Assembly: GCA_963797095.1 (NCBI GenBank)
Contig: CAWCNY010000006.1
Location: 832,001 to 896,000, forward strand
Origin: an uncultured Chloroflexia bacterium
GTDB lineage: Bacteria; Chloroflexota; Chloroflexia; QHBQ01; JADMIH01
Direction: 5' to 3'
Length of the DNA stretch: 64,000 nt
This document shows, piece after piece, positions 16,295-48,144 of this stretch. Below the pieces are notes generated by a model. It was not told the DNA's origin and ran no database searches. It saw nothing but the letters and a program-made list of their open reading frames with translations. The first letter of the stretch is position 1, and every line of letters starts with the position of its first letter. The position numbers and the translations under genes are program-made.

Positions 16295-16345
16295 ACACCT
16301 CAAGAATGTCCAGATTTGTCTCACCATTGCCATTTAGTATATGAG
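16295..16345 (+). repeat. Conserved 52-bp intergenic motif, copy 1
   Basis: ACACCTCAAGAATGTCCAGATTTGTCTCACCATTGCCATTTAGTATATGAG; aligns with 35391-35442 (+) and 48093-48144 (-). Confidence 0.8.
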
Positions 16346-16476
16346 GGCAAGTCCAACCTACCTCCAAACAGCCTTACAAAAATCGAATCATCGACCGTAC
16401 TAAAGTATGCATTCCCATAACAAACGATACATAGTAGAACAGGAGAAAAACAGAGCACAAAACCTACAACGTCTCA

Positions 16477-17106
16477 TTACGTCATTGGCGCTTCATCTCG
16501 AATACTGGTGAGAGGGTGCTTACGCAACAGGTAAACCATCGCAACCAGCGACAGCAAGTGGACTCCCAGCGTAATCCACGATGCAACCGGAGCGCGGAAC
16601 GAATAGATGCTATCCCAGTCGCCGTAGAAATCGGGGTCAAGACTGAGCAGCGGGTATACCACAAGAGTTTGTACCAATTCAAGCACACCCAACTGGTATA
16701 GCACCAGCCGTAGTGTTGGCCTAATCTTCCACATAAGCGCGGCGGCCAACGAGATAATACCCAAGACATAGCTGACGAAATTGCCCGCAAGCGCCACATA
16801 CCAATCGAGCAGCGGACTATTCGATGCTGGCAGATATACTACATATCCCCAGTAGATGAAATAGTGGAGGCCAAGTACCTGGCTGCCGGTACTCCAGGCG
16901 GCCAGCATATGCCCGAGTTCGTGTAAGAGCACACCTATCGGGATGAGCAGGAAGAATGCTACTCCACCCGCAAGTTGCTGATTGCGCGCTGAAAGCCCGC
17001 CTGTCCAGAACTCGCGCCAGGAAGTAACCAATCGGTATAGAGTGAACGCCCCGGCAAGCAGGTAGATGACGGTAAATCCCGATAATGTGTCGCCTATGCC
17101 GCCCAA
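16477..17106 (-). CDS. M50-like intramembrane metalloprotease
   Basis: Multi-TM protein with LLHELGH, VALAG and a late GD motif. Confidence 0.8.
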   Translation of the reverse strand: MGGIGDTLSGFTVIYLLAGAFTLYRLVTSWREFWTGGLSARNQQLAGGVAFFLLIPIGVLLHELGHMLAAWSTGSQVLGLHYFIYWGYVVYLPASNSPLLDWYVALAGNFVSYVLGIISLAAALMWKIRPTLRLVLYQLGVLELVQTLVVYPLLSLDPDFYGDWDSIYSFRAPVASWITLGVHLLSLVAMVYLLRKHPLTSIRDEAPMT

Positions 17107-17109
17107 GCT

Positions 17110-17463
17110 CTATTTGTCGCTCTCAGGGATTACCACTTCATATACAAGTGTGCTGCTGGCCGATGAGAGCGGACCTGTACGTCTGGCTTCTCCTTCCCCT
17201 GCCGGGTGGCCTCCCGTCTGAGGGACCTGTGGCCGTCCGTGTCCATGAGCCTGCGCGTGTGCCTGGCTCGATGTCCAGTTGTCGAGGGCTTGCTGATTAG
17301 CCCACCGCGTAACCGACATATATTCGTGCTCGCCCTTGAGTAGCTCGAAACCCATGAAGCCGGGTTGGTCGTCCACCAGCCCTGCTCTGTTGCGAAATCG
17401 CTCGGCGATCCTCTCGCCTTCCTCTGCCGACCCCACCGGGATGCGGACCATCACTACTATCAT
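17110..17463 (-). CDS. ABM-domain monooxygenase (IsdG/HmoA-like)
   Basis: ERFRNRAGLVDDQPGFMGFELL, TRW...WTSSQAHAQAH. Confidence 0.85.
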   Translation of the reverse strand: MIVVMVRIPVGSAEEGERIAERFRNRAGLVDDQPGFMGFELLKGEHEYMSVTRWANQQALDNWTSSQAHAQAHGHGRPQVPQTGGHPAGEGEARRTGPLSSASSTLVYEVVIPESDK

Positions 17464-17594
17464 AATATGCCTCGTCTTTCCTCGTGCTATCAGGAAAATG
17501 CCTATCAAGTGATTATATCACGTAGCGCGATATGTGCTATATTTACATCACTTTTCGGGAGGTTCTCAGGGTATTGTGACGTTGAGGTAGCAGT

Positions 17595-17999
17595 ATGGTC
17601 GAGCATGAGGGCCGACAACTGTCCGTTGAAGACCCGCCAGCCAATCATACACACAAGGGGTCACGAACGGCATGGCGGGTTGCGCGTATAGGCTGCCTGG
17701 GGGTGCTCGTGCTCATGTGCGGCCTGGTCTCGGCCCTGACTATCGCTCTGCAATCCGGCCCCGCAAATATCGCCCTACCTTTCGACAACTACCTGAAAGT
17801 CGGCTCGGACGATTTCGTCCTCTCAGACTATTCGTTCCAGAACGGCACCACTTATTACCTCGATCTGAACGGCGGAGGAGTCCGCAACATCCTTCAAGTG
17901 GAGTACCTGGAAGACAAGCATGAATTGCAATTGGTGCTACACCACTCAGCCAGGGGCGACCGGGACGAAAATAAGCTACTGGAGATGAAGCTGCCTTGA
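17595..17999 (+). CDS. Hypothetical single-TM protein
   Basis: GAGG RBS, one hydrophobic helix, then a small beta-rich domain. Confidence 0.65.
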   Translation: MVEHEGRQLSVEDPPANHTHKGSRTAWRVARIGCLGVLVLMCGLVSALTIALQSGPANIALPFDNYLKVGSDDFVLSDYSFQNGTTYYLDLNGGGVRNILQVEYLEDKHELQLVLHHSARGDRDENKLLEMKLP

Positions 18000-18071
18000 C
18001 AGAGAAAGGAAGAAAGCAGCAAAAAGCAGCAGGTTAGGTTCACTCGTCACTCGTCTTCCTTCGGCTGTCTA

Positions 18072-28015: not shown

Positions 28016-29443
28016 ATGGCTATAATCACTCTTGACAGTGACACAATCTCCCATACTCCCTTGCCTGCCCCTTCACCTAATGGTGTGGTAATAGCAGGGG
28101 CCGGCCTCGCTGGTCTCTCAGCAGCCAAGTACCTGAGCGACGCAGGCTACCGCGTGACCCTTCTCGAAAAACGGGAAGTGGCCGGGGGCAAGGCCTCTTC
28201 CTGGCAGGACGCCGACGGCGATTGGCTCGAAAGCGGCCTGCATGTCTTCTTCGGGGCCTACCGTAATCTCCTCGCCTTCCTGCGCGAGACCGACCTCCAC
28301 GACAACCTCGTCTGGATGCCCCACGCCCTCACCTTTTCCTCCGAGCATGGCAAACTCTCCCCTCTGGCTTTCCCTCAGTCTCTACCCGCCCCCTGGCATG
28401 GCCTGGTCGCCATAGCGCGCAGCCGGGGCGTGCTCACAGGGTTCGACAAACTACGAACAGGCATGGGCCTGCTCTGGCCTATCCTCTGCAAGCAAAGCTA
28501 CATCGATAGGCAAGATGCCATCTCCTGGGAAGCCTGGCACCACCGCCACGGCCTCAGCAGGCGCTCCCTGGGCGATTTCTTTGACACCATGGCCCTCGCC
28601 CTCAACTTCAACCCCGGCAGCGAGGTGTCGGCCAAGCTCCTCCTCACCGTCCTCAGCCACTTCGGCAAGGAGACCGACGCGTCGCGTGTGGCCTTCCTCA
28701 AGGGCGCGCCTGAGCTACGACTATTCCGTCCCCTTCTCAGCCAACTACAGGAGCGCGGTGTGGATGTGCGCCTCAACTCCAAAGTGCGCTCGATCCTCTA
28801 CAATTCCCACGAAAACACCATCGAGGGCTTTGAGATGGACGATGGCTCGGTCGTAAAAGGCGATGCCTACATATCGGCCATGCCGGTGCATAACCTCTGG
28901 AAGACCCTCCCACCCACCATGCGCTCCCTTGCGCCTTTCTCCGGCCTGCGCCACCTGCACGGCGTGCCCGTCATGACCGTCCAACTCTACTTCGACCGCC
29001 CCGTTACCGGGGTGGACAACCTCATCTTCTCCAGCCGCTCGCACATGTCGGTCTATGCCGAGCTAGGTGCCATCTGCCCCGACTTTCGGGAGAGCCTTGG
29101 CGGTCGCTCCATGGTGGAGCTAGTAATCGCCCCGGCAGCGGAATGGTTCAAGCTGGACGGCGCCTCCCTCACCGAACGCGTTATGAGCGAGTTCACCGCC
29201 CGCCACCCGAAGGCGTGCCAGGCAAAACTCCTCAAGAGCACTGTGGTGCGCATCCCGCAATCAGTCTACAAGGCCCGGCCCGGCACCGACCGCTACCGCC
29301 CCGACCAGGCAACGAGTGTGCCCAACTTCTTTCTCGCGGGCGACTACACCCGCCAGGACTATATGGCAAGCATGGAGGGTGCGGTGCTCAGCGGCAAACA
29401 GGCCGCAAGCCGCATCGCCGCCACCATCCCTGTTCGGGCATGA
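28016..29443 (+). CDS. crtP: 15-cis-phytoene desaturase, CrtP/PDS type
   Basis: GAGLAGLSAAKYL.DAG, GGKASSWQDADGDWLESGLHVFFGAYRN, ALNFNP, AGDYTRQDYMASMEGAVLSGK. Confidence 0.88.
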   Translation: MAIITLDSDTISHTPLPAPSPNGVVIAGAGLAGLSAAKYLSDAGYRVTLLEKREVAGGKASSWQDADGDWLESGLHVFFGAYRNLLAFLRETDLHDNLVWMPHALTFSSEHGKLSPLAFPQSLPAPWHGLVAIARSRGVLTGFDKLRTGMGLLWPILCKQSYIDRQDAISWEAWHHRHGLSRRSLGDFFDTMALALNFNPGSEVSAKLLLTVLSHFGKETDASRVAFLKGAPELRLFRPLLSQLQERGVDVRLNSKVRSILYNSHENTIEGFEMDDGSVVKGDAYISAMPVHNLWKTLPPTMRSLAPFSGLRHLHGVPVMTVQLYFDRPVTGVDNLIFSSRSHMSVYAELGAICPDFRESLGGRSMVELVIAPAAEWFKLDGASLTERVMSEFTARHPKACQAKLLKSTVVRIPQSVYKARPGTDRYRPDQATSVPNFFLAGDYTRQDYMASMEGAVLSGKQAASRIAATIPVRA

Positions 29444-30618: not shown

Positions 30619-30663
30619 ATCGCACCAGCTACTTACAATAAATACAGACTGGAGACAACAAAG

Positions 30664-31368
30664 ATGGTCGCAACATTACAACAAGCCTCCTGGACAATAA
30701 AAGGCTACGAAAATACAAATACTCACAGAACAAAGGCAGCCGATCTCAGGCATGATCTTCCGCTTGCCTTCGACAATAGGCTGGAAAATAAAGCGGACGA
30801 AGAACTCGTGGGATCCATGGCGCATGGCAGTACGCAGGCCCTCGAAGAGCTTTACAACAGGCACGTGCGCAATTGCTACGGGCTTGCTATGAAGATAGTA
30901 CGCGACCCCCACCTCGCTGAGGAGGTCGTGCAGGATGTATTTGTCAAGCTCTGGAGCAAGCCATCCAGCTTCATCCCCGACCGTGGCAAGTTCGTCGGTT
31001 GGCTCATGACCCTGGTGCACAACCGCTCCGTGGACAAGCTCCGCCGCGCCAACGCTCAATCTACCGTGGCGACGATCACCCTCGACTTCGAGAACCGCCA
31101 TGGCGTGGCCCTCGCCGATGTTCTCCCCGACGAATCACCCTCGCCCGACGACCTTGCCTGGGCGCGGGAGCAGGGTGACGTGATCCGCGACGCCCTGCGC
31201 CGCCTCCCTGAGCCTCAGCGTCAGGCGATCTCGCTGGCCTATTTCGGCGGCCTGACCCAGAAAGAGGTAGCCGAGCGCCTGCAAGAGCCGCTGGGCACCA
31301 TCAAGACCCGCACGCGCACCGGCCTCCAACAACTCCGCCGCCTGCTGGTAGGGGCTGACCTCGAATGA
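30664..31368 (+). CDS. ECF sigma factor (SigK/LitS-like)
   Basis: AEEVVQDVFVKLW, WLMTLVHNRSVDKLRR, LAYFGGLTQKEVAERLQEPLGTIKTR. Confidence 0.93.
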   Translation: MVATLQQASWTIKGYENTNTHRTKAADLRHDLPLAFDNRLENKADEELVGSMAHGSTQALEELYNRHVRNCYGLAMKIVRDPHLAEEVVQDVFVKLWSKPSSFIPDRGKFVGWLMTLVHNRSVDKLRRANAQSTVATITLDFENRHGVALADVLPDESPSPDDLAWAREQGDVIRDALRRLPEPQRQAISLAYFGGLTQKEVAERLQEPLGTIKTRTRTGLQQLRRLLVGADLE

Positions 31369-32762: not shown

Positions 32763-32777
32763 CAGATTTACAAACCA

Positions 32778-33380: not shown

Positions 33381-33385
33381 CCACC

Positions 33386-35283: not shown

Positions 35284-35390
35284 TGCTCACCTCTCCAAGT
35301 TCCCAAGAAGAATCTCAACGATCGGAATGAACGCTTTCACCCACCGCCTCATGGGCCGCAAAAATGCAAAGAAAAGATCTGTACCAAAGT

Positions 35391-35442
35391 ACACCTCAAA
35401 ACCTGTCCAGTTTTGTCCCGCCTTTGCCATTTAGTATGTGAG
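35391..35442 (+). repeat. Conserved 52-bp intergenic motif, copy 2
   Basis: ACACCTCAAAACCTGTCCAGTTTTGTCCCGCCTTTGCCATTTAGTATGTGAG. Confidence 0.8.
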
Positions 35443-35541
35443 ACCGAAAATAACCATCCCACACAAAGGAGGTGACAACTTTAGATCCAATTCGTTTTCT
35501 GATATAATACGCACGCACAAGCAGTGCGCAGGAGGAACACT

Positions 35542-35807: not shown

Positions 35808-37241
35808 ATGCAATACAAAGAAGCCCTCAACTACATCAACAGCTTCACTAACTATGAGACGACCCCAGGTGTGGGCCGCGACCTGAACCAGGATGGCCTG
35901 GAGCGCGTGCACCTGTTGTTGCGCTTACTTGGGCGCCCCCAGAATAGCTTCAACAACGTTGTGATTGCAGGCACCAAAGGCAAAGGCTCTGTGGCTGCCA
36001 TGATAGAGTCGGTGTTGCGCGAGGCGGGCTATCGCACCGGCCTATATACCTCGCCCCACCTGCACACCTTCCGCGAGCGTATCCGCTCAGGTGGATCTCT
36101 GATTTCACCCGCCGATATGGCTCGTCTTACCGAGAAGGTCGTGCCCGTGGTAGAGCGGATCAGGGCGTTGGGCGACCCAACGCTCCTCCCGACCACCTAT
36201 GAGCTTGCGACAGCCCTTGCGTTCCTCTATTTCCAGGAGCGAGGCGTGCAATATGCGGTGCTTGAGGTTGGCCTGGGAGGCAGGCTCGATGCGGTGAACG
36301 TGGTAACCCCCATGGTCTCAGTGATCACCTCTATCAGCCTGGACCATACGGAAGTGCTAGGCGATACTCTGCCCGAAATAGCAACCGAGAAGGCGGGCAT
36401 TATCAAGCCCAACGGCAGAGTGGTGAGCGCTCCCCAGCAGGACGAGGTTATGGAAGTGCTGTCGCGTGTCGCCGAGGGTCAGAAGGCGCGCATAACCGTC
36501 ATCGGCAGGGAAGTATATGTGGGCACCGGCCACTTGCCCGAAGTCGTTTCCGATGATGCCGGGGTGCCTATCTATCAGAGCTTCACCGTCAACTTCGAGG
36601 ATGAATGGGGCACGCCCGCTGGCAGGTTGCGAGTAAGGCTGCCCCTCCTCGGCAATCATCAGCAGGTAAACGCCGCTGTGGTCTTGGCCGTGCTGCAAAT
36701 ACTAAAAGAGGAAGGTGCAGACCTCGACAGAGATGCTATCGTGAATGGGTTGTCGGGCGTGCTATGGCCTGGTAGATTGGAAGTCGTGCGTCGCGAGCCT
36801 ATAGTGATGGCGGATGGCGCTCACAATGTCGAATCGATCGCCAAGATCGGCCAGGCCCTTGCTGATCTCTTTCCCAAGCGCCAGGTGATCGTGGTATTCG
36901 GTACTTCGCGGGAGAAGGATATCGCCGGAATGCTGAAAGAACTGCGTACCTGGACCGACGGCATTTCCGGCCCCAGTGTCGAGCGACTAATCGTTACAAA
37001 ATCGAAGCACCCACGTGCTGCCGATCCAAAGGAAGTGGCGCACCTGGCCGTTGGCACTGGCCTGACCGTCGAGCTAAGGGAAGATGTGCGCTCCGCCCTT
37101 TCCAGAGCCGAAACTTCTGTAAAGCAGCTCGCCCGCGCCGACCGGCTCGACCCTGTCGTACTGGCGACAGGCTCCCTCTTCCTGGTGGCCGAAGCCCGTG
37201 AGGTTTACGGCCTTGCGCCCGATCTCTCTGAAGAGGGTTAG
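35808..37241 (+). CDS. folC: Folylpolyglutamate synthase / dihydrofolate synthase
   Basis: IAGTKGKGS, YTSPHL..FRERI, EVGLGGRLDA.N, WPGRLE, DGAHN, TGSLFLV. Confidence 0.96.
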   Translation: MQYKEALNYINSFTNYETTPGVGRDLNQDGLERVHLLLRLLGRPQNSFNNVVIAGTKGKGSVAAMIESVLREAGYRTGLYTSPHLHTFRERIRSGGSLISPADMARLTEKVVPVVERIRALGDPTLLPTTYELATALAFLYFQERGVQYAVLEVGLGGRLDAVNVVTPMVSVITSISLDHTEVLGDTLPEIATEKAGIIKPNGRVVSAPQQDEVMEVLSRVAEGQKARITVIGREVYVGTGHLPEVVSDDAGVPIYQSFTVNFEDEWGTPAGRLRVRLPLLGNHQQVNAAVVLAVLQILKEEGADLDRDAIVNGLSGVLWPGRLEVVRREPIVMADGAHNVESIAKIGQALADLFPKRQVIVVFGTSREKDIAGMLKELRTWTDGISGPSVERLIVTKSKHPRAADPKEVAHLAVGTGLTVELREDVRSALSRAETSVKQLARADRLDPVVLATGSLFLVAEAREVYGLAPDLSEEG

Positions 37242-37244
37242 GGC

Positions 37245-38018
37245 TTAATCCAGCTTGCCTGACCTTGCCTTCTCAGGCGTAGTTCCGTTCGCCGGGGCAA
37301 GGGCGCCTTCGCTATCCAGGTAATAGGTCATACTCTGAAGGGCTACGATAGGATCGATATGCCGGATCCTGACGTGCGGCGGAACCTGCACCGTGATAGG
37401 CGCATAGTTGAGGATAGCGCACACACCGGCGGCTATTAGCGCATCCGCTGCTTCTTGTGCGCCCCTGGCAGGCACAGCCATGATCGCCATCTTAATGCCC
37501 ATGCGCGAGATTACTTTCGGCATATCGTCCATGCCGAGTATCTCCATATTGCCGATGCGCTGGTGCACCTTCTCAGGGTTATGATCAAAGAGGGCTTCTA
37601 TCTGGAAGCCCTGCTCGGCAAGGCCCTCATAATGGAGGAGAGCGCGCCCCAGGTGGCCCAACCCGACCAGTGCCACGGGCCAGTCACGATCCAGCTTAAG
37701 GATAGCTTTCACCTCGGCCAGCAGGTAGGCCACGTTGTACCCTTTGCCTTGCTTGCCGAACTCTCCAAAGTACGAAAGGTCGCGGCGTATCTGGGCCGCG
37801 CTTACGCCAAGCCTGTGGCCCAACTCGCCCGACGAGACCGTTTCGACCCCTTCGCTATACAGGTAATTGAGGCTGCGGGCGTAGATCGGCAAGCGCCTGA
37901 TCACAATATCCGGAATACCGTTCTGCTCCGCACCGGGACGCCTCCCAGCAGGTCCACCGGTTGTGGGTTCGGTCGTATCGATGTCGTCCATCATACTGTC
38001 AGCTATGTGTCTCTGCAT
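37245..38018 (-). CDS. rex: Redox-sensing transcriptional repressor Rex
   Basis: IRRLPIY, VSSGELG, QIRRDLSYFGEFGKQGKGY, GLGHLG, ILNYAP; start uncertain. Confidence 0.96.
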   Translation of the reverse strand: MQRHIADSMMDDIDTTEPTTGGPAGRRPGAEQNGIPDIVIRRLPIYARSLNYLYSEGVETVSSGELGHRLGVSAAQIRRDLSYFGEFGKQGKGYNVAYLLAEVKAILKLDRDWPVALVGLGHLGRALLHYEGLAEQGFQIEALFDHNPEKVHQRIGNMEILGMDDMPKVISRMGIKMAIMAVPARGAQEAADALIAAGVCAILNYAPITVQVPPHVRIRHIDPIVALQSMTYYLDSEGALAPANGTTPEKARSGKLD

Positions 38019-38080
38019 CTTGCTGCCCTGTTCCAGGTTCAAAATTCAAACGTGTGAAGCTTCCTGATATGAACCTTGAA

Positions 38081-38860
38081 CTACCCCTTCGTTCCCCAGT
38101 GCACAGCCACTGCGCCGAAGGTTAGCTGCTTCCAACAAACATTCCTTATGCCTGCTTTGCCCATTATGAGCGCAAGTTCTTCCGGTGGTGGGAATTTCCC
38201 CATCGAGTTCGGAAGATACGTGTAGGCGTCACTATCGCCTGCGATCAGTTTGCCCAGCAATGGGACGATCCGACGGGTGTACAAGTTGTGAAACGCCCTC
38301 GTTGCGGCGAGACGTGGCTTGCCAACTTCCAGGCACACAATCCTACCACCAGGCTTGACTACCCGGCGCATCTCGCGGAACACACCCTCTATATCGGTGA
38401 CATTGCGCATTGCAAAGCCGGTGGCAATGCAATCGAATGTGTCGTCATCAAAAGGGAGGTTGAGGGCATCTGCCCCCGCGAAGAAGACGGATTCTTTAGC
38501 GCCAACACCCTCGCTGCGGCCCTGTATCATCATCGGTGCACAAAAATCTATACCCACGGCCCGCGCGCCGCGATGTGCCATCTCCTGAGCGATAAGCCCT
38601 GTACCGGTCGCAACGTCGAGAGCCAGGTCACCTGGCCCGGGGCGTGCCTTGTTGACGGTGAAACGTCGCCACGCGCCATCGCGCCCGAAGCTCATAAGTG
38701 CGTTCATGAAATCGTACCGCTTCGCGATACGTGCGAACATGCCACTCACATAGCGGGCTTTTTGCTCACCTTGAAGGCTTGCATTGGGGTTAGCGGTGGG
38801 TTGCGTGGATGGGCTTATCCTCTGTCTGGTATGTACCTGTGAGAGATCTCTGGCGCTCAT
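38081..38860 (-). CDS. menG: UbiE/MenG demethylmenaquinone methyltransferase
   Basis: MFARIAKRYDFMN..MSFG, LDVATGTG, FAMRNVTD, EMRRVVKPGG, AYTYLPNS. Confidence 0.9.
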   Translation of the reverse strand: MSARDLSQVHTRQRISPSTQPTANPNASLQGEQKARYVSGMFARIAKRYDFMNALMSFGRDGAWRRFTVNKARPGPGDLALDVATGTGLIAQEMAHRGARAVGIDFCAPMMIQGRSEGVGAKESVFFAGADALNLPFDDDTFDCIATGFAMRNVTDIEGVFREMRRVVKPGGRIVCLEVGKPRLAATRAFHNLYTRRIVPLLGKLIAGDSDAYTYLPNSMGKFPPPEELALIMGKAGIRNVCWKQLTFGAVAVHWGTKG

Positions 38861-38929
38861 ATTCGTACCATGCCGTAAGAAAAAATGGGTCGCTAACCGC
38901 GAAAGGCCGTCCAGTGTACCCAGTGTACA

Positions 38930-38947
38930 TTGTAACAATCTTCACAA
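38930..38947. promoter_or_regulatory. Rex operator upstream of the menG-rex unit
   Basis: Minus strand TTGTGAAgattGTTACAA versus consensus TTGTGAA-N4-TTCACAA. Confidence 0.75.
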
Positions 38948-39004
38948 GATCAGGCAAGAAACGGTTTCTCATCTGCCTTACCGCTATGGTATCATAAAAG
39001 CCCG

Positions 39005-40078
39005 ATGCGAGTGTCCGTACCATATGACAAGCCGATTGTAGCCGAGGTGAAAGTGCGTGGCGGGTTGGGATCGTGCCTGCTGGCGCTGGCTCTCTGTGCC
39101 TACCCGACCTTCGTGGTGTTGCTCACAGTTATCTCGATCGTGTTTCCGGCGCGCGGCGGCTTGCGAGCGGTGGCACAGATCTTCGCGCCACATCTGTACA
39201 TACCTCTCTTGATACTGGTGCCGTTCGCGTTCAGGCGTGGACTGTTCGGTGTCGGCCTGCTGAGAGTGCTGTTGCTAGGGTGCGTAGGCCTTTTCTGCGC
39301 CCGCTATCTCCCTGCTTTTGCGGCCTCAGGGCCAGCACCCGATCCGGCGGCTCCTAAGTTCAGCGTATTGACCTGGAATGTATTCGCCGAGAACCGGCGC
39401 GAGGATAGTGTCCGCGGGTTGCTTCTGGAGAAGCCCGCCGATGTGATCGCTTTGCAGGAGGTGTCATGGACCTGGCTCGCGAACGACCAGATCGCGGCGG
39501 CCTACCCCTACCGCCTCGTACGCCCGGGCGAAACCGCCTCAGGCATGGCCCTCCTGAGCTCTTATCCAATCCTCGACAGCGGCGTGCTGGACGGGGACCG
39601 CGATCTGTGGGACATCCCTCGCCTGATGTGGGCGCGCCTGGATGTGCATGGCACTTCAGTGCTGGTGGTGAACGCGCATCCGATCTCACCCTACTATTCA
39701 GGCGCGGATTGCTCGCTCCCCATTTGCTACGATCCAACCCTGCGCGACAGGCAGATCGTGGCGATGAGGCAGGAGCTTAGTTCATCTCTTGTAGAAGATG
39801 GAGAGCCATTCGTGCTGGTAGGTGACTTCAACGTGACCGAGCGCGAACCCGCCTACGCAGACCTATCGGCGGGGTTGACAGATGCTTTCAAGGCAATTGG
39901 CTCAGGCTTAGGCACCAGTTGGCGGCCCTCTTTCATCATGAGCCAGCCTGTAGGCTTCCTTCAAATCGACTACCTGTTTGCCGGGCCTGGTATCGGTCCC
40001 GTTGGTGTGCAAACCGACTGTACGCCCCGCAGCAGCGATCATTGTGTGGTTATCGGGCGTTTCGAGATCAAAAGATGA
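39005..40078 (+). CDS. Membrane-anchored endonuclease/exonuclease/phosphatase family protein
   Basis: N-terminal TMs, LTWNV, DVIALQE, GDFN, IDYLF, SDH; start uncertain. Confidence 0.9.
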   Translation: MRVSVPYDKPIVAEVKVRGGLGSCLLALALCAYPTFVVLLTVISIVFPARGGLRAVAQIFAPHLYIPLLILVPFAFRRGLFGVGLLRVLLLGCVGLFCARYLPAFAASGPAPDPAAPKFSVLTWNVFAENRREDSVRGLLLEKPADVIALQEVSWTWLANDQIAAAYPYRLVRPGETASGMALLSSYPILDSGVLDGDRDLWDIPRLMWARLDVHGTSVLVVNAHPISPYYSGADCSLPICYDPTLRDRQIVAMRQELSSSLVEDGEPFVLVGDFNVTEREPAYADLSAGLTDAFKAIGSGLGTSWRPSFIMSQPVGFLQIDYLFAGPGIGPVGVQTDCTPRSSDHCVVIGRFEIKR

Positions 40079-40254
40079 TGCCCTACATCGGTTTCTCTCT
40101 GCCCGACGTTAATCATTGCGTAACCTCTGTAATACCGTCGCGCTTGCGGTCGTATTAGTATTGTAGTACAATTTCTGCATATAACTGGCGCCCAACGCCG
40201 GGGTGCCTGCCTTGTGCATGCCCGGCTCCCCTTCCCGTTCTACCAAGGAGTTTT

Positions 40255-43200
40255 ATGAAGACCCAGGGCCGTGGTAATACAGGCGGTCGTATTCCGCCCC
40301 CACACGACGATTACGACGACTACGAGGAAGTCGAATACTCACCTGAAGACGACCTCGAAGTTGCGGGCCTCGAAGATGACTACGAGGATGAGCAAATCGA
40401 CACTCCTGCCTCTTCCCGGCGGGCGGGCGCTCGATCAGGCTCCAACGGGAACAACAAGAATAAGCCCGGAAATGGCCGCTCTACACCTCCCCAGAGGGGC
40501 GGCACGCCTCGCGTGCGCCCGCCCCTGGCAGTAGGTCGCACAGCGGCTCCCCTCTTACCCAAGCGCCGACAACGTCCTGAAATAGAGGTCGAGCCTTCGG
40601 CGGCAGAAACTGCCCCTACTGGCAGGCCCGCCACTGGCAATGGCAAGCGCAAAGAGAGCAACGGCGCTACGTCGACTGCTGCACTGACCGCACCTGCTGC
40701 TTCCACTCCAACTCCCAGGTCCGGGTCCCGCGCTTCACAGTCCGCGATCGCCACAGAGACTCCTGCTCCACCTCAACCGGAGACTCTCTCCACGCGCGTT
40801 TTCAGGTTGATCGTCAACTATGAAACGTTGATCTACATGGGCATTTTTGCCCTTGCGTTCATTACGCGCTTCTGGGACATTGGCGACAGGGGCATACACC
40901 ACGACGAAAGCCTGCACGCCGTCTTCTCGCGCAACCTCTACACTGGGGCCGGTTACACTCATGACCCGATGATGCACGGCCCAGTCCAGTTCAACCTGAT
41001 CGCAGGTATGTACTGGCTCTTTGGCACTTCCGACGCAACCGCCCGCTTCGCCTCGGCTCTCTGTGGCATCTGGGTGGTTATGTCACCATTCTTCTTGCGC
41101 AGACAGATGGGGCGGTGGCCCGCTCTGATCGCTTCCTTCCTGCTCCTGATAGCGCCTGGCATCCTCTACTTCAGCCGCATGGCTCGTGAAGACTCGGTCT
41201 TCTCGGCGATGGAGATGATCATGATCGTCGGGCTGTGGCGCTTTATTTCAACGCGCAGGCCCGCCGATTTCTTCATCTTCTGCGCCGGTCTTTCGCTCAT
41301 GTTCACCATCAAGGAGTCGGCTTATCTGACGGTGGCCGTGCTCGGCAGTATGTTTGCTTTGCTCTTCGCATACCAGGCTGGGTGGGCTATCGTGGGCGCG
41401 TTCGCTGCCTATGGTGCGGCAATGGGCGGCATGCTCCTGGTAATAAGCGGCAAGATGAAGAGTGGCGAAATCGCAGGCCTCCCCAATATCCCCGCCCAGA
41501 ACCCCGACTACGGCACGATCACGAACTTTGCAAGTAATTTCCTGGGGCACCCGTTGGTGCAGTGGTCGGCAATCATCACTGTGCTCTTCATTGTCGGCCT
41601 GGTCTTCCTCCTGTGGTCTAAACGGCGTCAGGTGGTAATGGCGGACGCAGAAGCAGCCTACGAGATGGATGGGGAGTACAGCCGCCCGGTGCGCCCATCT
41701 CGCACTACTAGACCCTCTGGCCGTCCTGCACAGTCGCCGCTACCTACGCGCAGGCCGCGCCAGTCCTCGCCGGGTACAGATGAGGTTATCGAGGCGGCTC
41801 CGCCCCCGGCCTCCAATGGTCACGAAAATGGGGCTGCCGTGTTGCCGGCCGAAGAGTCCGCCTCCGTTGCCCCTCCTGCTTATGCCTATGAGGAGTCTTA
41901 TGAAGCAACCGAGGTATGGGATCCCAGGCGGCTCGACCCCAAGCCGGGGACATTGCTGGCCCACTACCAGCCCGGCTCCGTCCCCCACCTGATTGGCTCC
42001 CTTTTCGGAAGACCCTCGGTGCTGCTGATCGGCTTCCTGATTGCGGCTACCATCTTTATCGTCTTGTACTCGGTGTTCTTCACCGACCTGCCACGCGGCA
42101 TCGCATCCGGCCTGTTTGCCTCGCTTGGCTACTGGATGGCCCAGCAGGGCGTGGCACGCGGGGGCCAACCATGGTACTACTATTTCCTCATCATACCCCT
42201 CTACCAGCCTATCGCTGTCTTCTTCAGCGTGGTCGCCACGATCTTCTTCAGCGTGAAGGGTATCCGGGGATTCCTAAAGAACCGGGAAGATCGCCTGTAC
42301 GGCGAAACTGATCAGCCGCGCCTCGGCCTCTACAACACCGATCGGCCAGTGCCATTCGCCAAGTTCAGCGCCTTCCTGCCCCTATTTTCGATCTGGTGGT
42401 TGGGTGGGGCCTGGTTCATCTACAGTTGGGCGGGCGAGAAGATGCCCTGGCTTATCATGCACATGATCAGGCCCGCCATATTGCTGGCCTCCCTCTTCCT
42501 GGGCGCTCTTGTGGCCTCTATTATTGCTCGTAGGCAGGAGCGGATAGCATGGGCCAGGGCCTATTACAGAGAATACTACGGCGATGAACCGGATGCGCCC
42601 ACCATACCTCTCACAGAGAGCGGGCGCCGAGCCTCGGACGGTGGAAGGGGCGCGCCTCAGTCGAAAACCCAGGTAGCCCGCAACCCCAAATACCGCCGGG
42701 CACCGGTGGTTTTGCGGGAACAGGAGCCACCATGGATCAGCTGGAATCGCCCAGGCTCCAAGTTTCCGGCTCTCTCCTTCCTGACCATTCTTACCTTGCT
42801 TGCTCTGGCCTGGGGGCTGAAGCTCAATGCGCTCTCGTATGTCAGCGACTATACTGGTTGGGGCATTTCCTGGGTCTATCCTATGTTGGTAGTTATCCTG
42901 GTGGTGTCTTATTCCGTGTGGATCGGCCCATCTCGCGTGCTACGCTACCTGGCCCTGGGCATCTTTTCAATTTTCTTCCTCTATGAGTTCCGCTCGGCGA
43001 TCGACCTCACGTACCAGCACCCTGATGTGCCGATCGAGATGGCCGTCTACGTGCAAACGTCACCCGATGTGACGCGTACCGTCAAAGAGATCGATGATTA
43101 TTCTACCTATGCCACCGGTGGCCTCAATACACGGGTGACTTACGATAGCTTTGCATCGTGGCCTTTCGAGTGGTACTTCCGCGACTTCAAGAACAAGAAT

Positions 43201-43644
43201 TTCATAGCCGCCAACGAGGTTCCTACAGGACCCGATTATCCAATACTGGTCCTGGAATACGCCAAGCACAACAACGACCCGGCCCTCGCAGATTACCTGG
43301 TGCAGCGTTATGCTATGCGCTGGTGGTTCCCGGAGGACTGGTACAAGAGCCAACTCATCCAAGGCCAGGATTATCAGACAGCGCCTTTTGGTAGCCAACT
43401 TGGCGCGATCCTGGGAACGACCGCCGGCACATTCACTAACCCGCAGATGACTTCTACCCTTTGGAAGTACCTTATCTTCCGCCAGACTCCGGAGCCTTTA
43501 GGCTCGGAAGATATGGTCGTTGCCGTGCGACGTGACATAGCCCAGATATACCATTACCTGCAATATCAGCCGCCCGACAGGAGCGACGAACCACCACCCA
43601 CCGTTCGCACGCCGCCAGCGCCCGATGGCAGCTTCTATCGCTAA
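40255..43644 (+). CDS. TIGR03663/Agl23-like GT-C membrane protein with long disordered segments
   Basis: RFWDIGDRGIHHDESLHA, DPMMHGP, YFSRMARED, GEKMPW, VYVQTSPD, WPFEWYFRD. Confidence 0.85.
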   Translation: MKTQGRGNTGGRIPPPHDDYDDYEEVEYSPEDDLEVAGLEDDYEDEQIDTPASSRRAGARSGSNGNNKNKPGNGRSTPPQRGGTPRVRPPLAVGRTAAPLLPKRRQRPEIEVEPSAAETAPTGRPATGNGKRKESNGATSTAALTAPAASTPTPRSGSRASQSAIATETPAPPQPETLSTRVFRLIVNYETLIYMGIFALAFITRFWDIGDRGIHHDESLHAVFSRNLYTGAGYTHDPMMHGPVQFNLIAGMYWLFGTSDATARFASALCGIWVVMSPFFLRRQMGRWPALIASFLLLIAPGILYFSRMAREDSVFSAMEMIMIVGLWRFISTRRPADFFIFCAGLSLMFTIKESAYLTVAVLGSMFALLFAYQAGWAIVGAFAAYGAAMGGMLLVISGKMKSGEIAGLPNIPAQNPDYGTITNFASNFLGHPLVQWSAIITVLFIVGLVFLLWSKRRQVVMADAEAAYEMDGEYSRPVRPSRTTRPSGRPAQSPLPTRRPRQSSPGTDEVIEAAPPPASNGHENGAAVLPAEESASVAPPAYAYEESYEATEVWDPRRLDPKPGTLLAHYQPGSVPHLIGSLFGRPSVLLIGFLIAATIFIVLYSVFFTDLPRGIASGLFASLGYWMAQQGVARGGQPWYYYFLIIPLYQPIAVFFSVVATIFFSVKGIRGFLKNREDRLYGETDQPRLGLYNTDRPVPFAKFSAFLPLFSIWWLGGAWFIYSWAGEKMPWLIMHMIRPAILLASLFLGALVASIIARRQERIAWARAYYREYYGDEPDAPTIPLTESGRRASDGGRGAPQSKTQVARNPKYRRAPVVLREQEPPWISWNRPGSKFPALSFLTILTLLALAWGLKLNALSYVSDYTGWGISWVYPMLVVILVVSYSVWIGPSRVLRYLALGIFSIFFLYEFRSAIDLTYQHPDVPIEMAVYVQTSPDVTRTVKEIDDYSTYATGGLNTRVTYDSFASWPFEWYFRDFKNKNFIAANEVPTGPDYPILVLEYAKHNNDPALADYLVQRYAMRWWFPEDWYKSQLIQGQDYQTAPFGSQLGAILGTTAGTFTNPQMTSTLWKYLIFRQTPEPLGSEDMVVAVRRDIAQIYHYLQYQPPDRSDEPPPTVRTPPAPDGSFYR

Positions 43645-43707
43645 ACGTGATACGTGACGCGGTATTGACTACATCCGTTTTGAGAATGGAATGGTGAAAA
43701 GGAGACT

Positions 43708-46700
43708 ATGGACAATCGTAAATTGAGCGCACGCGCCGAGACGGGCGCGTCCAGGGCCGGATATGGGCGACGCGACGGCGGTGGAGCAACTACCGTATCG
43801 TGGCTTGATCGCGCTGTCGAGCTTACCCGCGTCAACTGGGAAGTAATCTTCTTCGTTGGATTGATGGTAGTTGCCGTACTAACGCGCCTGGTAGACCTCG
43901 GCTCGCGGGCATTCCACCACGACGAGAGCATCCACGCGTATTTCTCCAACTATTACCTGCTAACGGGTAACTTTACGACCACGCCAGGCTTTGGCGGCGG
44001 CTACGACCCGACTTATCATGGTCCTTTCCTCTACAACATAGTGGCTCTCGGTTTCTTCCTGTTTGGAACCAACGATGCCACCGCCCGTCTGATGCCGGCT
44101 ATCTTCGGCATCATACTGATCGGCCTCATCTGGCTGCTTCGTCCCTTTATAGGCAGGCTTGGTGCGTTGATCGCGGCCTTGCTGGTGATACTCTCACCCA
44201 GCATTACTTACTATTCGCGTTCGTTGCGCCATGACATCTTCGCGCTGACTGGATGCTTGCTCCTTTTCATCTCGATCCTGTGGTTCTTACGAACCCACCA
44301 GGCTCGTTGGGTTTACCTGGGAGCGTTAGGCTTCATAGTGGCCTATGCGAGCCACGAATTGACGTTCATCGTGGCTTTCATCTTCGCGCTCTTCCTGGCT
44401 ATCGCCGCGTTTACTTACAATGCCTTCTCCGGTGGCTCCCGGCGCTATGCGGACTCCGATGTAAATCCTGTGCGCAGCGCGTTGTCGGCTCTTGGCACGC
44501 AGCGCTGGACGTTGTTTGGCGCGCTTGCGCTGGCGGGTGGGGTGTATGTGGTACTTTACACCAATCTTCTGACCCATCTCGACTTGATCCTTTCCGGGAT
44601 CATCGAGGGCCTGAACTACTGGCTGATCCAGCAACGCGCAGCGCGTGGCAATCAGCCGATCTTCTACTACGTCATGATGATGCCGATTTATGAGCCGCTG
44701 GCTCTGCTGGCAGGGATCGGCACCACAGTGTACATGGTGGTCAAATACTTCAGGGGGGAGGGCGACACCGTAGCAGTAGATGACGGGGCCGACGCCTTCC
44801 CTACAAACACTGATGTGCCTGTTGAGGACGAATTTGGGCATCCGCTGCCGGGCATCGCCTCTATGCGTGGCCTCACCTGGGCTTTCCTCGTGTTCTGGTC
44901 ATTTGGCGCTTTCGTTGCCTTCTCTATCGCGGGCGAGAAGATGCCCTGGCTGACCATGCAGATGGCTCTCCCTTTCAGCTTGCTTGCTGCCGCAGGACTC
45001 GGCAAGTTGCTGACCGGCATGGAATGGCGTGAGGTGCGCAAGGGGGGCGGCCTCTTCCTGGGCGTGGGTGTTGTGCTCTTCATCTTCGCGGCCTTTATGC
45101 TGGTGTCCTACTTGAACGGCACCATGCCAAAGCCAGCAGGAGCAAGCGCCGACTTCCAGAACCTTGTTCGTGGTTTCCTGCTGATCCTCTTTACGGCAGG
45201 CCTGCTTGCCCTGTGCGGTTGGCTTGCATATAAGATGCTGCCCGGCAGGGCAGTGAAGGTGATCGGCTTCACTTTCGCCATTTTCCTGGGCCTGTACGGT
45301 ATCCGCTCGATGACCATCCTCAACTACAACAGGGGCGATATCCCCAACGAGATGATGGTTTACACGCAGTCGGCTCCTGATACGACGATTGTGGCCGATC
45401 TTGTGAAGCGGCTATCGCGTGACGAAACATCATTCGACGCCGACCGCAACGCCAACGACGTTACCGGCGGGCACGGACTAACTATTGCCCTCGACCAGAA
45501 CGAGGCTACAGAGTGGCCGTTCGACTGGTACTTCCGCGATATGAAGAACCTGATCTATCACAACCTGGCGGGCTGGCAGTCGAACAACGCGGGCGTGCCG
45601 CCTAACGAGGCGGTGATCATCGCCAGCGAAGCGACCGAGAACGAGCCGAACTTCCAGGCGTTCATCAAGGATAAGTACACCACCACCAAGTATGTGCATA
45701 ACTGGTGGTTCCCTGAAGAGACCTATCGAACGGGCAACGATGGCGATTTCGGTAAAGCCCTCAATCTAATGTTCGGTAACAACCTGCGGTACCTGCTGTA
45801 CCGCGACCCTGGCAAGCCGCTCGGTTCGCGCAACTTCTACCTGCACGTTCGCAACGACCTGGCGCCGAAGGCGGGCTTTGCCAGCGCGGGCACTGTCACT
45901 ACCCCGGCTGACCCAACCCACCCCGACGAGAGCACTCCTGTGCACGCGTTGTTTGACCTGGCTCCGAAGGGGACCGACCGGGGAGCGTTCGATCAGCCTC
46001 GCGGTATCGCCACCGGGCCGGATGGAAGCGTGTATGTGGTCGACACCAACAACTTCCGTATTCAGAAGTTCGATTCGACCGGTAAGTTCGTCAAGATCAT
46101 CGGCTCCGGCAAAGGCAGCGATGATGGAGAGTTTGCTCCATTGAGCGACCAGGCCAGCGGTACAGGCGCAGGCGGGATCGCGGTGGACAAGGACGGCAAC
46201 ATCTACGTGGCCGACACCTGGAACCACCGGATCGAAAAGTTCGACTCGAACGGTAACTTCCTCACCAAGTGGGGCGAGTTCGTCAACCTGGGCGACTCGG
46301 GTGGCTTCAGCGACGGCAACAAGAACGACAAGTTCTATGGACCGCGCGGGGTGGCTGTTGGGCCTGATGGTAATGTCTATGTTACCGACACGGGCAACAA
46401 GCGCGTTTCCATCTTTGCGCCGGACGGCAGCTACTTGCGCGAGATCAGCAGCGGTATGACCCCGGATAAGATCTCAGGGAATTACCCGTTCAACCAGCCG
46501 GGAGAGATGAACGAGCCTATAGGAATTACGGTTGACCAGCAGAGCAACGTGTATGTAGCCGATACGAACAACAAGCGCATCCAGAAGTTCGACTCAAGCG
46601 GCAAGTTCGTGACCCAGTGGCCCATTCCGAGTGGCGGGTGGGACCCAGGGACGACGATGGAGCCGTTCATGGCGACCGACGCCCAGGGTAATGTGTACGT

Positions 46701-46887
46701 TACCGGCCCCACCGCCGCTCTGGTATACAAGTTCAGCCCATCGGGTGAATTGCTGGGCAATCCGGGCAAAAGCCCTCAAAACGTGGTTCTCAAGACCCCT
46801 ACGGGCATTACGGTGGCCGCCGACGGTAAGGTGTACGTGGTTGACACCGGTGCTAACGGAGTGGTCAACATGGGCACCATACCCTGA
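43708..46887 (+). CDS. TIGR03663/Agl23-like GT-C membrane protein fused to an NHL beta-propeller
   Basis: RAFHHDESIHA, DPTYHGP, YYSRSLRHD, GEKMPW, MVYTQS; C-terminal NHL repeats (PRGIA..PDG.VYV.DT.N.RIQKF). Confidence 0.88.
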   Translation: MDNRKLSARAETGASRAGYGRRDGGGATTVSWLDRAVELTRVNWEVIFFVGLMVVAVLTRLVDLGSRAFHHDESIHAYFSNYYLLTGNFTTTPGFGGGYDPTYHGPFLYNIVALGFFLFGTNDATARLMPAIFGIILIGLIWLLRPFIGRLGALIAALLVILSPSITYYSRSLRHDIFALTGCLLLFISILWFLRTHQARWVYLGALGFIVAYASHELTFIVAFIFALFLAIAAFTYNAFSGGSRRYADSDVNPVRSALSALGTQRWTLFGALALAGGVYVVLYTNLLTHLDLILSGIIEGLNYWLIQQRAARGNQPIFYYVMMMPIYEPLALLAGIGTTVYMVVKYFRGEGDTVAVDDGADAFPTNTDVPVEDEFGHPLPGIASMRGLTWAFLVFWSFGAFVAFSIAGEKMPWLTMQMALPFSLLAAAGLGKLLTGMEWREVRKGGGLFLGVGVVLFIFAAFMLVSYLNGTMPKPAGASADFQNLVRGFLLILFTAGLLALCGWLAYKMLPGRAVKVIGFTFAIFLGLYGIRSMTILNYNRGDIPNEMMVYTQSAPDTTIVADLVKRLSRDETSFDADRNANDVTGGHGLTIALDQNEATEWPFDWYFRDMKNLIYHNLAGWQSNNAGVPPNEAVIIASEATENEPNFQAFIKDKYTTTKYVHNWWFPEETYRTGNDGDFGKALNLMFGNNLRYLLYRDPGKPLGSRNFYLHVRNDLAPKAGFASAGTVTTPADPTHPDESTPVHALFDLAPKGTDRGAFDQPRGIATGPDGSVYVVDTNNFRIQKFDSTGKFVKIIGSGKGSDDGEFAPLSDQASGTGAGGIAVDKDGNIYVADTWNHRIEKFDSNGNFLTKWGEFVNLGDSGGFSDGNKNDKFYGPRGVAVGPDGNVYVTDTGNKRVSIFAPDGSYLREISSGMTPDKISGNYPFNQPGEMNEPIGITVDQQSNVYVADTNNKRIQKFDSSGKFVTQWPIPSGGWDPGTTMEPFMATDAQGNVYVTGPTAALVYKFSPSGELLGNPGKSPQNVVLKTPTGITVAADGKVYVVDTGANGVVNMGTIP

Positions 46888-46905
46888 TAGTATCCGCTGG
46901 GTAAC

Positions 46906-46934
46906 GGGGCGGCCTGGCCGCCTCATTTTCTTTT
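46906..46934 (+). terminator. Intrinsic terminator-like hairpin between convergent genes
   Basis: GGGGCGGC-CTG-GCCGCCTC followed by ATTTTCTTTT. Confidence 0.55.
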
Positions 46935-46941
46935 AAGAGAC

Positions 46942-47994
46942 TCAGCGTTTCTTCGCGTAGGCAGCGATGGTTGCGCCCTTGCCGAGGGCGGCCATTATTG
47001 GTGCGTACACTACGCTGAATAGAGCCAGCGGTAAGGCTGTCAGCAGCGCGACCAGAGTCTGGCGGCGAGCCGATCCTACTTCGTTTCCTTCGGCGTCCAC
47101 CACTTTCGCCGAGCGGGTCCGCAAGTAGTTATAGAGCAGGTTGTGGCGGAGGCCCATCTTGTTCTGAACGGTCTGCACCAGGCTGAAGAAGTCGTACTCG
47201 GTCGAGAAGAAGTTGGTGTCGCTGATAGTAAGCCCGGCTTTGTCGAGGGCGTGCTGCAAGGTGGCCTTCGTGAAGTGAGTGCGGTGGCGCGGCACGTCGA
47301 GATGGAACCAGCGTTTGCCTCCCCACCTGGCTTCGGGGCTTCCGAAGTTGGGCACGGCCACCAGCAGAGTGCCGCCCGGTTTCAGTATCCGTGCCACCTC
47401 CTGAAGCATAGCCCTGGGCGATTGGACGTGCTCCAGCACGTGCCACAGGATTACAAGGTCGAATTCGTTGTCGGGAAACGCGGCCTCCTCCAGCATGTGA
47501 GTGGTGATGGGGAGGCCCAACCGCTCACGAGCGTAGGTGGCTGCCTCATCGTTCAGTTCGGTGCCTGTAGGGGTCCACCCACGCTCGCGAAGCTTGTTCA
47601 AAAGCAGCCCGCGCCCGCAACCGATGTCCAGTACTTTGCCCGGCTTCTGGTGTTGCTCGATCTGGTAGGCCCGGTAGGTGTAGAGGTTGTCCAGAAGCCA
47701 TTCGACTATTTTGTTGAAGCGTTTGCCGCTGCCGTAATATCCCTTAGGATAGTAATGGTCTATCCGGCGTTCCGACAGGATAGGTGATGTGACGTATAGC
47801 TGGCAGTCGTAGCAGTAGCCGACCGTGAACGGGTCGCCGGTGATGTAGTCGCGGGTGACGAACATGGGAGTAAACCTGTTGCGCGGGTGGGTGCATATCA
47901 GGGTCGAGTGATCTCTGAGCCGGTGGTAAGTATGGTGGGTACGCCGCGATCCATTGCGGTTGACCTTGATTGGCAGCTTGATTGGAGTTTGCAT
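46942..47994 (-). CDS. Class I SAM-dependent methyltransferase (glycan-locus type)
   Basis: CYDC, VLDIGCGRG, WHVLEHV, LKPGG, VPN, DVPRH..HF. Confidence 0.9.
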   Translation of the reverse strand: MQTPIKLPIKVNRNGSRRTHHTYHRLRDHSTLICTHPRNRFTPMFVTRDYITGDPFTVGYCYDCQLYVTSPILSERRIDHYYPKGYYGSGKRFNKIVEWLLDNLYTYRAYQIEQHQKPGKVLDIGCGRGLLLNKLRERGWTPTGTELNDEAATYARERLGLPITTHMLEEAAFPDNEFDLVILWHVLEHVQSPRAMLQEVARILKPGGTLLVAVPNFGSPEARWGGKRWFHLDVPRHRTHFTKATLQHALDKAGLTISDTNFFSTEYDFFSLVQTVQNKMGLRHNLLYNYLRTRSAKVVDAEGNEVGSARRQTLVALLTALPLALFSVVYAPIMAALGKGATIAAYAKKR

Positions 47995-48092
47995 TATTGA
48001 GAAGTCATGTAATAGAGCGTACTTCTGGCTAGCTCAATTCGATTTCCTGCGCTGTTTTTACGGTGTTTGTTTGAAGGGCGATTATTCTCCCC

Positions 48093-48144
48093 CTCAATAG
48101 CTATTGGGCATTGGTGAGACAAAACGGGACAGCTTTTGGGGTGT
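48093..48144 (-). repeat. Conserved 52-bp intergenic motif, copy 3 (inverted)
   Basis: Minus strand ACACCCCAAAAGCTGTCCCGTTTTGTCTCACCAATGCCCAATAGCTATTGAG. Confidence 0.75.

Follow-up and report, generated by a model that had tools for sequence, protein, structure and literature searches.

A short repeat whose orientation follows the local strand skew of the DNA, and not the direction of the neighbouring genes, is scattered in 93 copies through the genome of an uncultured bacterium of the class Chloroflexia. Three of these copies lie in the stretch analysed here, 64,000 nucleotides of contig CAWCNY010000006.1 (assembly GCA_963797095.1, positions 832,001 to 896,000 of the forward strand), which is called the window below. 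The genome under study (G000; 6.02 Mb in eight contigs, C2, C5, C6 and others) was compared with other genomes of its taxonomic family, which carry handles of the same form (G0xx). We consider it about an even chance (probability roughly 0.5) that the repeat is a lineage-specific, non-autonomous mobile element, the insertion or survival of which is strand-specific relative to a strand-asymmetric DNA process. According to this proposal, the repeat, which resembles a miniature inverted-repeat transposable element (MITE) or a repetitive extragenic palindromic (REP) sequence, would move or turn over in the genome, and its insertion, or its survival afterwards, would be restricted by strand relative to the local process. 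That process would most simply leave one strand single-stranded, and would also produce the patchy G/C and A/T skew. The repeat would serve as a polarity marker, enriched near origin-like switches (C-rich to G-rich) and pointing at them, and would not be the agent of the skew. Both the mobility by a strand-specific mechanism and the single-stranded exposure as a common cause are what we infer from the observations below.

The repeat was noticed in a sequence-only reading of the window as an oriented, non-palindromic motif of 52 bases in three copies. All three were confirmed at the coordinates and on the strands that had been given for them, and a recount of the hand alignments reproduced the identities of 44/52 (copy 1 vs copy 2) and 38/52 (copy 2 vs copy 3). 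A strict regular expression matched 24 genomic sites, and an nhmmer profile (E<1e-4) and a sequence-only covariance model, built from three species, each found 93 copies in G000, far above the chance expectation. The 52 bases turned out to be the middle of a longer conserved core of about 80 bp (approximately 85 bp in the alignment of the 24 strict matches), in which an A-run, a TGTAC-N4-GTACA-like box, CCCAAAACCTGTCC-GTTTTGTCCCACCAATGCCATTTAG and a terminal GAGGG follow one another. Some copies have a second, similar box as a direct repeat about 124 bp downstream. The exact form TGTAC-N4-GTACA occurs 33 times in the genome, compared to 3.7 expected, namely 23 times as the first box, 6 times as the second and 4 times elsewhere. 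Two variants of the 5' box were distinguished, with 45 and 41 copies, the latter (41/93) being without the left hairpin arm.

The mean pairwise identity between copies is 74% in the core and 40% in the tail, suggesting that the core is the functional or recognisable unit. The conservation concerns the primary sequence over about 80 bp and not a palindrome, and the core consensus is rich in A and C (52 of 80 bases). The single-strand DNA folds of four copies were unremarkable on both strands (z of -2.8 to +0.7), with two small hairpins recurring and no others. After the core, a short GAGGG...CCCTC inverted repeat was seen by eye in many copies. No similar DNA was found in plasmid and phage collections. 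Among the matches listed for a loose 26-base pattern in a contig collection, most were single chance ones in unrelated taxa, and one Chloroflexia metagenome-assembled genome was the only multi-copy source.

Some individual copies and their surroundings are of note. At C5:725617, a lone TGTACCAAAGTACA box is preceded by the A-run of the repeat in the absence of the core, and may be a relic after loss between two boxes. In one copy, C5:537988-539411 (-), an insertion sequence of 1.3 kb that is unrelated to the repeat has entered after ...CACTTAG; it codes for a protein of 402 aa, its ends are short inverted sequences, and TTAG appears to have been duplicated. Heptanucleotide tandem arrays are frequent neighbours of the copies (G000 and G017 flanks, for example loci L042, L040 and L036), and several copies in G017 have reverse-complementary arrays on their two sides (GTTGTCR... 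upstream and CGACAAC... downstream), which would place these copies in the loop of a long hairpin, should the arrays pair.

Bacterial strand skew is as a rule small and two-armed; a skew database paper reportedly puts it at around 2.5%. In G000, no two-armed skew is present, and the skew forms a mosaic of patches. The standard deviation (SD) of the third-position GC skew is 0.21 per 10 kb, and its absolute value exceeds 0.2 in 34% of the windows of that size. The third-position skew of a gene correlates with that of its neighbours (r=0.74) on either coding strand, which supports the exclusion, in the sequence-only reading, of gene orientation as the cause of the skew flip. Three of the spot counts that had been given there for 60-nt lines were recomputed and are exact (14881 C26/G14, 31621 C32/G11 and 54361 C8/G30). 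The strongest patch, at C2:737-790 kb, reaches a third-position skew of -0.5 to -0.8 (C2:737-765 kb) in genes of both strands, begins abruptly at about 737.2 kb, and fades slowly rightward through dnaA (C2:768124-769842), upstream of which, at about 770.0-770.6 kb, DnaA-box-like words cluster. Near-perfect DnaA boxes form a cluster of at least three at one place genome-wide, C6:341 kb, the boxes upstream of dnaA being looser. DnaA-box clusters were therefore rejected as markers of extra origins.

The skew around all 93 copies was determined on the motif strand, with the repeat masked by ±300 bp. In the 10 kb upstream, the all-site GC skew is negative for 67 of the 93 copies (binomial p 2.5e-5) and the third-position GC skew for 66 (mean -0.103), and from +10 to +30 kb the third-position skew is positive for 60 of 92 (mean +0.073). 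The AT skew upstream is opposite in sign to the GC skew, A>T accompanying C>G. At 1-kb resolution, the profile runs level at -0.12 to -0.14 between -5 kb and +1 kb, then rises through zero at about +6 kb and reaches about +0.05. Wrong-sign patches hold 28 of the 93 copies. The motif is thus polar with respect to skew as well as in sequence, and its position toward the 3' end of a tract in which its own strand is C-rich, as described for the window, is on average true over the 93 copies. The sequence-only reading had named a loss of the oriented skew upon averaging over all genomic copies as a refutation; the skew survives this averaging. Compared to intergenic control sites matched on the sign and size of the local skew, which gave a symmetric profile, the repeat agrees upstream (z of -1.2 to +0.8) and departs downstream (z of +4.2, +4.7, +6.0 and +4.8).

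The skew rule is alike in both 5'-box variants and in all three score tiers. A compositional survivorship artefact, in which copies that lie against the local mutation pressure decay and escape detection, would account for an A/C-rich core on the A/C-rich strand. However, profile scores do not differ between right- and wrong-oriented copies (63.2 vs 63.4, p 0.68), the score is not correlated with the upstream skew (rho 0.07), and the artefact leaves unexplained both the downstream sign reversal and the convergent pairs of copies described below. No age trend of the orientation bias was found in G000. The equal profile scores largely refute this explanation, which we regard as extremely unlikely.

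To place the repeat relative to genes, we used a crude in-house codon-usage caller (4,634 genes, 86% coding). Predicted genes flank 84 of the 93 copies without overlapping them, and these 84 intergenic copies comprise 23 in tandem-sense, 23 in tandem-antisense, 23 in divergent and 15 in convergent settings. The downstream gene is co-oriented with the repeat in 51 of the 93 cases. The orientation of the repeat is therefore without preference relative to the neighbouring genes.

These placements bear on the possibility that the repeat is a portable promoter or small-RNA gene, in which the TAG..TGAG end would be an alternative-sigma start and the link to skew a by-product, for example of head-on-collision selection. 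The strong conservation, the T/A-rich block at the end of the core followed by GAGGG, the inverted repeat past the core in many copies, and the 51 co-oriented downstream genes are consistent with such a role. In contrast, sense and antisense tandem settings are equally frequent, 15 copies face a convergent gene, no sigma-70-type site was found to recur in the conserved cores of the three window copies, and the tail past the core is only 40% alike between copies. Rfam 15 yielded no match, either in the window at gathering scores or in five loci at E<=1, and RNAalifold found no consensus structure in 82 copies on either strand. No RNA runs were listed as matching a 9.9-kb query, the match being one soil DNA run with a small share of the query words. 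The alternative-sigma promoter, which had been offered as the alternative in the sequence-only reading, is thus left without support, and we consider a promoter or small-RNA gene very unlikely.

The distribution of the repeat among relatives indicates turnover. A covariance-model scan of 26 genomes of the family, with at most 150 candidates scored per genome, found the repeat in seven, with 93 copies in G000, 94 in G014, 42 in G017, 11 in G012, 3 each in G015 and G003, and 1 in G001. The same model did not find it in the other 19, including the unpublished genomes G016, G031 and G032. The copies form species-specific subfamilies, and a set of invariant core positions is common to the subfamilies of three species. 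In the window, the block from the carotenoid genes to those for a Mur ligase, a Rex-type regulator and UbiE is kept in the same order in seven congeners. The site orthologous to that of copy 2 is empty in six of these, and in the seventh, G004, the gap of about 5 kb was checked by an nhmmer scan only. In G014 and G015, the upstream stop codon at this site is directly followed by the conserved promoter of a small membrane open reading frame (ORF). The site of copy 3 is empty in G017, G014, G015 and G004. Conversely, elsewhere in this syntenic block, a gap without a copy in G000 is occupied by one in G017, the closest relative (Mur ligase identity 80%). The G017 copies are up to 99% identical to one another, and several contigs of this genome end in copies. 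The repeat is thus short, non-coding and dispersed in many copies, mostly outside predicted genes, and differs in presence at orthologous sites (copy 2, copy 3 and the G017 copy), as is characteristic of MITEs and other non-autonomous elements. The long gap in G004 (C58; locus L026, 4902-9925) lies between the orthologues of a 639-aa gene and the Mur ligase gene, and the same gap measures 0.37-0.74 kb in the other congeners examined.

The orientation rule was also observed in G017, at non-orthologous sites, where the upstream skew is negative for 26 of 34 copies (p 0.003). Because G017 repeats the rule elsewhere and right- and wrong-oriented copies are equally preserved, the link between repeat and skew appears to be physical and not a compositional artefact. 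The skew itself differs between the two species at orthologous genes. The gene before copy 2 has a third-position skew of -0.49 in G000 vs +0.07 in G017, the gene behind copy 3 has +0.13 vs -0.15, and G017 lacks copies 2 and 3 as well as both flanking patches. Such strong differences at orthologous genes in the same order indicate that the patches were made in place and are not the borders of inversions or imports. Inversions and horizontal gene transfer boundaries, which the sequence-only reading had listed as possible sources of the skew, do not apply in the window, since the patch edges lie inside the block with conserved order in seven congeners. Inversion between copies was likewise rejected as the source of the switches; exchange across a switch keeps the polarity rule and makes no new border, and the conserved gene order around the window copies also rules it out.

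Copies of the repeat are concentrated near one class of patch border. With a jump defined as a change in third-position skew of at least 0.25 between adjacent 8-kb windows, the genome contains 90 upward jumps and 84 downward ones. Of the 90 upward jumps, 36 have a copy no more than 10 kb away, compared to 25.2±3.7 upon random intergenic placement (P 0.0025), and 34 of the copies near upward jumps point toward the jump and 6 away from it; the other 54 upward jumps have no copy within 10 kb. For the downward jumps, the corresponding number is 19 of 84 (expected 24.2±3.6), with 2 copies pointing toward and 17 away. Among 35 adjacent pairs of copies no more than 25 kb apart, 18 are convergent, 7 divergent and 10 tandem (binomial p 7e-4 vs one quarter). 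The 5 kb to the left of the 18 convergent pairs are negative in 17 cases (one of them at -0.00) and those to the right are positive in 13; between the two copies, the skew is close to neutral. No shared gene content was found inside the 18 pairs, the best protein cluster being present in 5. When the best upward step was sought within ±15 kb of each of 91 copies, it fell within ±500 bp of the motif in none of them; its mode is at +3 to +6 kb, and it lies at +1.5 to +10 kb for 45 of the 91 copies vs 27% of 873 controls. A search by 13-mer counts for a second motif at the 54 copy-free upward and the 84 downward jumps gave mainly heptamer arrays. One 13-mer family (CGAAGGGCACGAA and neighbours), with 21 non-coding copies, was present in 7 of the 54 copy-free upward-jump regions, more than expected from the part of the genome that these regions make up.

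Several results weigh against a mobile element that follows a strand-asymmetric process. Inspection by eye of the aligned flanks of 24 G000 and 20 G017 copies, in which the ends are fuzzy and no systematic test was applied, revealed neither terminal inverted repeats nor target duplications, and no longer element carrying the core, as expected of an autonomous partner, was found in G000. A Y1 transposase was rejected as the partner because the ends of four Y1 transposase elements are without the box and the two do not co-occur across the 26 genomes, Y1 genes being present in 18 and the repeat in 7, with distributions that do not match. The invariant core positions shared by the subfamilies show constraint, which could equally reflect a function for the host. 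In G017, the rule is followed by 11 of 18 copies of the young full-length subfamily vs 15 of 16 diverged copies (Fisher p 0.043, in a post hoc split); with the bias stronger in the diverged copies, filtering after insertion or a slow causal effect fits better than an insertion bias. The G017 copy in the syntenic block shows the reverse pattern, with +0.03 upstream and -0.15 downstream. Plain orientation-biased insertion also does not predict the one-sided departure from the matched controls, the accumulation of copies at upward jumps, or the excess of convergent pairs. The strongest patch is free of copies, none lying between C2:627.8 kb and 849 kb, and no sign change of the skew was found at the DnaA-box cluster beside dnaA. 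Finally, genes lean slightly to the C-rich strand (58:42 in strong patches). This lean is opposite to the usual leading-strand rule, and hence the label origin-like is not secure for either type of switch.

Part of this evidence would be expected if the repeat were a polar cis-acting site (a nick or transfer site, a strand-displacing start, a lagging-strand priming site or a fork barrier) that launches or bounds the process and thereby writes the skew, as the sequence-only reading had proposed. The profile is a sawtooth, strongest from -5 kb to +1 kb with a sign change downstream, unlike that of the matched controls; the convergent pairs bracket near-neutral interiors; and in the window the third-position skew changes across copy 2 from -0.49 (33143-35062) to -0.10 (35808-37241), so that a patch edge coincides with the copy. 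The joint absence of copies 2 and 3 and both flanking patches from G017, the more consistent orientation of diverged copies in the post hoc comparison, and the core positions conserved across three species' subfamilies point in the same direction. As expected of a polar site, the orientation does follow the strand asymmetry, but the repeat neither coincides with the change in skew nor is needed for it. The best step never falls within ±500 bp of a copy, copies are lacking near 54 upward jumps and the strongest patch, and in G015, which has three copies and none at the copy 2 site, the orthologous genes are nevertheless C-rich (-0.31 to -0.36). In G014, 94 copies coexist with weak patchiness (SD of the 4-kb skew around copies 0.045, compared to 0.115 in G000 and 0.091 in G017) and show no orientation rule (19/38), although that genome offers little skew to follow. 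The copies in wrong-sign patches, the opposite pattern of the G017 copy in the syntenic block and the unremarkable single-strand folding also argue against such a site. These results indicate that the patches neither require the repeat nor follow from its presence; the proposed imprinting of a skew bias by the site is not supported, and we regard a skew-writing site as unlikely.

The repeat could also be a polar site kept by the host, comparable to Chi, to the FtsK-orienting polar sequences (KOPS) or to a priming signal, which works only one way round and of which selection keeps the correctly oriented copies, without causing the skew. The orientation rule in two species, the stronger bias in diverged than in young G017 copies (post hoc), the invariant core positions and the independence from gene direction are in keeping with this. 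Ter (Tus/RTP), Chi and KOPS are non-palindromic and oriented by leading/lagging polarity, Ter groups are convergent around the skew switch, and the sites are short (8-30 bp), conserved in position and served by known proteins. The repeat shares with them its non-palindromic, strand-oriented nature and its convergent pairs. Unlike them, it changes position between species within syntenic DNA, is absent from 19 of the 26 family genomes, and lies off the skew step. No candidate binding or nicking protein was linked to the repeat. In addition, 80 bp is long for a site of the Chi or KOPS type, G014 keeps its 94 copies without an orientation rule, and decay is not more advanced in wrong-oriented copies than in right-oriented ones. 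A host-kept site is therefore quite unlikely in our estimate.

The closest parallels to a mobile, strand-guided repeat are IS200/IS605 elements, their non-autonomous derivatives, and the REP sequences and bacterial interspersed mosaic elements (BIME) that depend on Y1 (HUH) transposases. Similar to these, the repeat is short, non-coding, multi-copy and intergenic, and has an orientation tied to strand asymmetry, here the local skew and not a mapped fork direction; in some copies, one small box that may form a hairpin is directly repeated close to either end. It differs from them in that it is without a cognate Y1 transposase, in that the 41 copies without the left hairpin arm obey the same skew rule and the folds are unexceptional, and in that about 80 bp of primary sequence, and not a palindrome, are conserved. 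According to two reports, the orientation of insertion sequences relative to replication is family-specific and intrinsic to transposition (Gomez et al. 2014, PMC3971601), and the orientation of the IS200/IS605 type is tied to strand asymmetry through targeting of the lagging-strand template (PMC5027513). A mobile repeat guided by strand asymmetry would extend these known biases to a genome without replichore-type skew. As in the former report, the direction of the element would be set by a replication-linked asymmetry and be intrinsic to the family. The reference in that report is two replichores between oriC and ter, whereas here it is a mosaic of patches of tens of kb without a switch at dnaA, and the copies cluster near one class of patch border. 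Cyanobacteria, in which an irregular GC skew accompanies multi-origin, DnaA-independent replication (abstract of Ohbayashi et al. 2020, PMC7198777), also have a chromosome without two-replichore skew and offer a precedent for many origin-like switches; unlike the present case, that abstract names no sequence element marking the switches. In a literature search made largely without subscription journals and supplements, no description of a repeat that marks the polarity of skew patches was found.

The features of the window are listed below.

Table 1. Copies of the repeat and skew patches in the window (positions count from the first nucleotide of the window; C5 and C6 denote contigs of the genome)
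Feature	Position	Strand	Remarks
Copy 1, conserved core	16273..16362	+	nhmmer C6:848276-848359, covariance model C6:848273-848362; includes the 16295-16345 noticed at first
Copy 1, second box (CCGTACTAAAGTATGCA)	16395..16411	+	TGTAC-N4-GTACA-like 5' box of the core, repeated directly
Copy 2, conserved core	35372..35457	+	nhmmer and covariance model; right edge of the C-rich patch
Copy 3, conserved core, inverted	48077..48165	-	nhmmer and covariance model; convergent with copy 2, 12.7 kb apart
C-rich (on +) patch upstream of copy 2	28016..35062		+ strand carotenoid and sigma-factor genes (Pfam)
Near-neutral interior of the convergent pair of copies 2 and 3	35808..46887		Third-position skew -0.16 to +0.07
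G-rich (on +) patch behind inverted copy 3	46942..64000		Begins about 1.2 kb inside the pair

The 18 convergent pairs include that of copies 2 and 3. In the C-rich patch upstream of copy 2, the GC skew is -0.11 to -0.23 per kb and the third-position skew -0.23 to -0.49. From 46 kb onward, most 1-kb windows have a GC skew of +0.06 to +0.26 and three are close to zero (+0.007 to +0.027), and the genes of the G-rich patch have third-position skews of +0.23, +0.13, +0.10 and +0.15. According to Pfam, the genes of the window are ordinary housekeeping genes. Those of the interior of the pair encode a Mur ligase, a Rex-type CoA-binding regulator, a UbiE methyltransferase, an Exo_endo_phos protein and two PMT_2 glycosyltransferases, and no mobile-element genes were found there by Pfam.

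Two remarks of the sequence-only reading on the surroundings of the copies are correct: a convergent gene lies ahead of copy 1, and the AAGGAGGTGA after copy 2 lacks a start codon. This Shine-Dalgarno-like sequence stands without a gene because it belongs to the tail of the repeat, and the small ORF beyond it, at 35542-35736 (+), has a promoter-like site of its own (TTTAGA-17-TATAAT at 35480-35508). The ORF encodes 64 aa from a conserved ATG, with two predicted hydrophobic stretches (by eye), and is kept in the same gap in six congeners. Elsewhere in the window, RecQ is represented by two overlapping ORFs at 18853-21256 (-), with DEAD/Helicase_C at 20234-21256 and RecQ_Zn_bind/RQC/HRDC at 18853-20277, which could be due to a frameshift, a sequencing error or a real split. 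A UPF0236 ORF (Pfam) at 58873-60384 (+) lies in the 1 kb of the window with the highest skew (+0.255, 59-60 kb); it has a poor gene-caller score and may be foreign or mobile DNA.

Patches of tens of kb, in which the third-position GC skew falls to -0.8, ignore gene direction in this genome and differ between congeners with the same gene order. A repeat whose direction reads the polarity of these patches is independent evidence for a physical, strand-specific process, as opposed to a drift in composition, and its inward-pointing concentration at one class of border provides concrete sites and a sequence probe for experiments. A more far-reaching possibility, which we hold to be rather improbable, is that of a chromosome organised, instead of in two replichores, in many domains by strand-displacing or multi-origin synthesis, in which the repeat would be a working polar part; it could, for example, be the border of a priming or initiation zone, with synthesis fired or stopped at a distance of a few kb from its arrowhead. 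Convergent pairs would then fence origin-like zones, reset the single-strand exposure and write the sawtooth, and the subfamilies would reflect co-evolution with a binding protein. If the repeat were indeed a working part of the process, this would represent a new way of organising bacterial replication.

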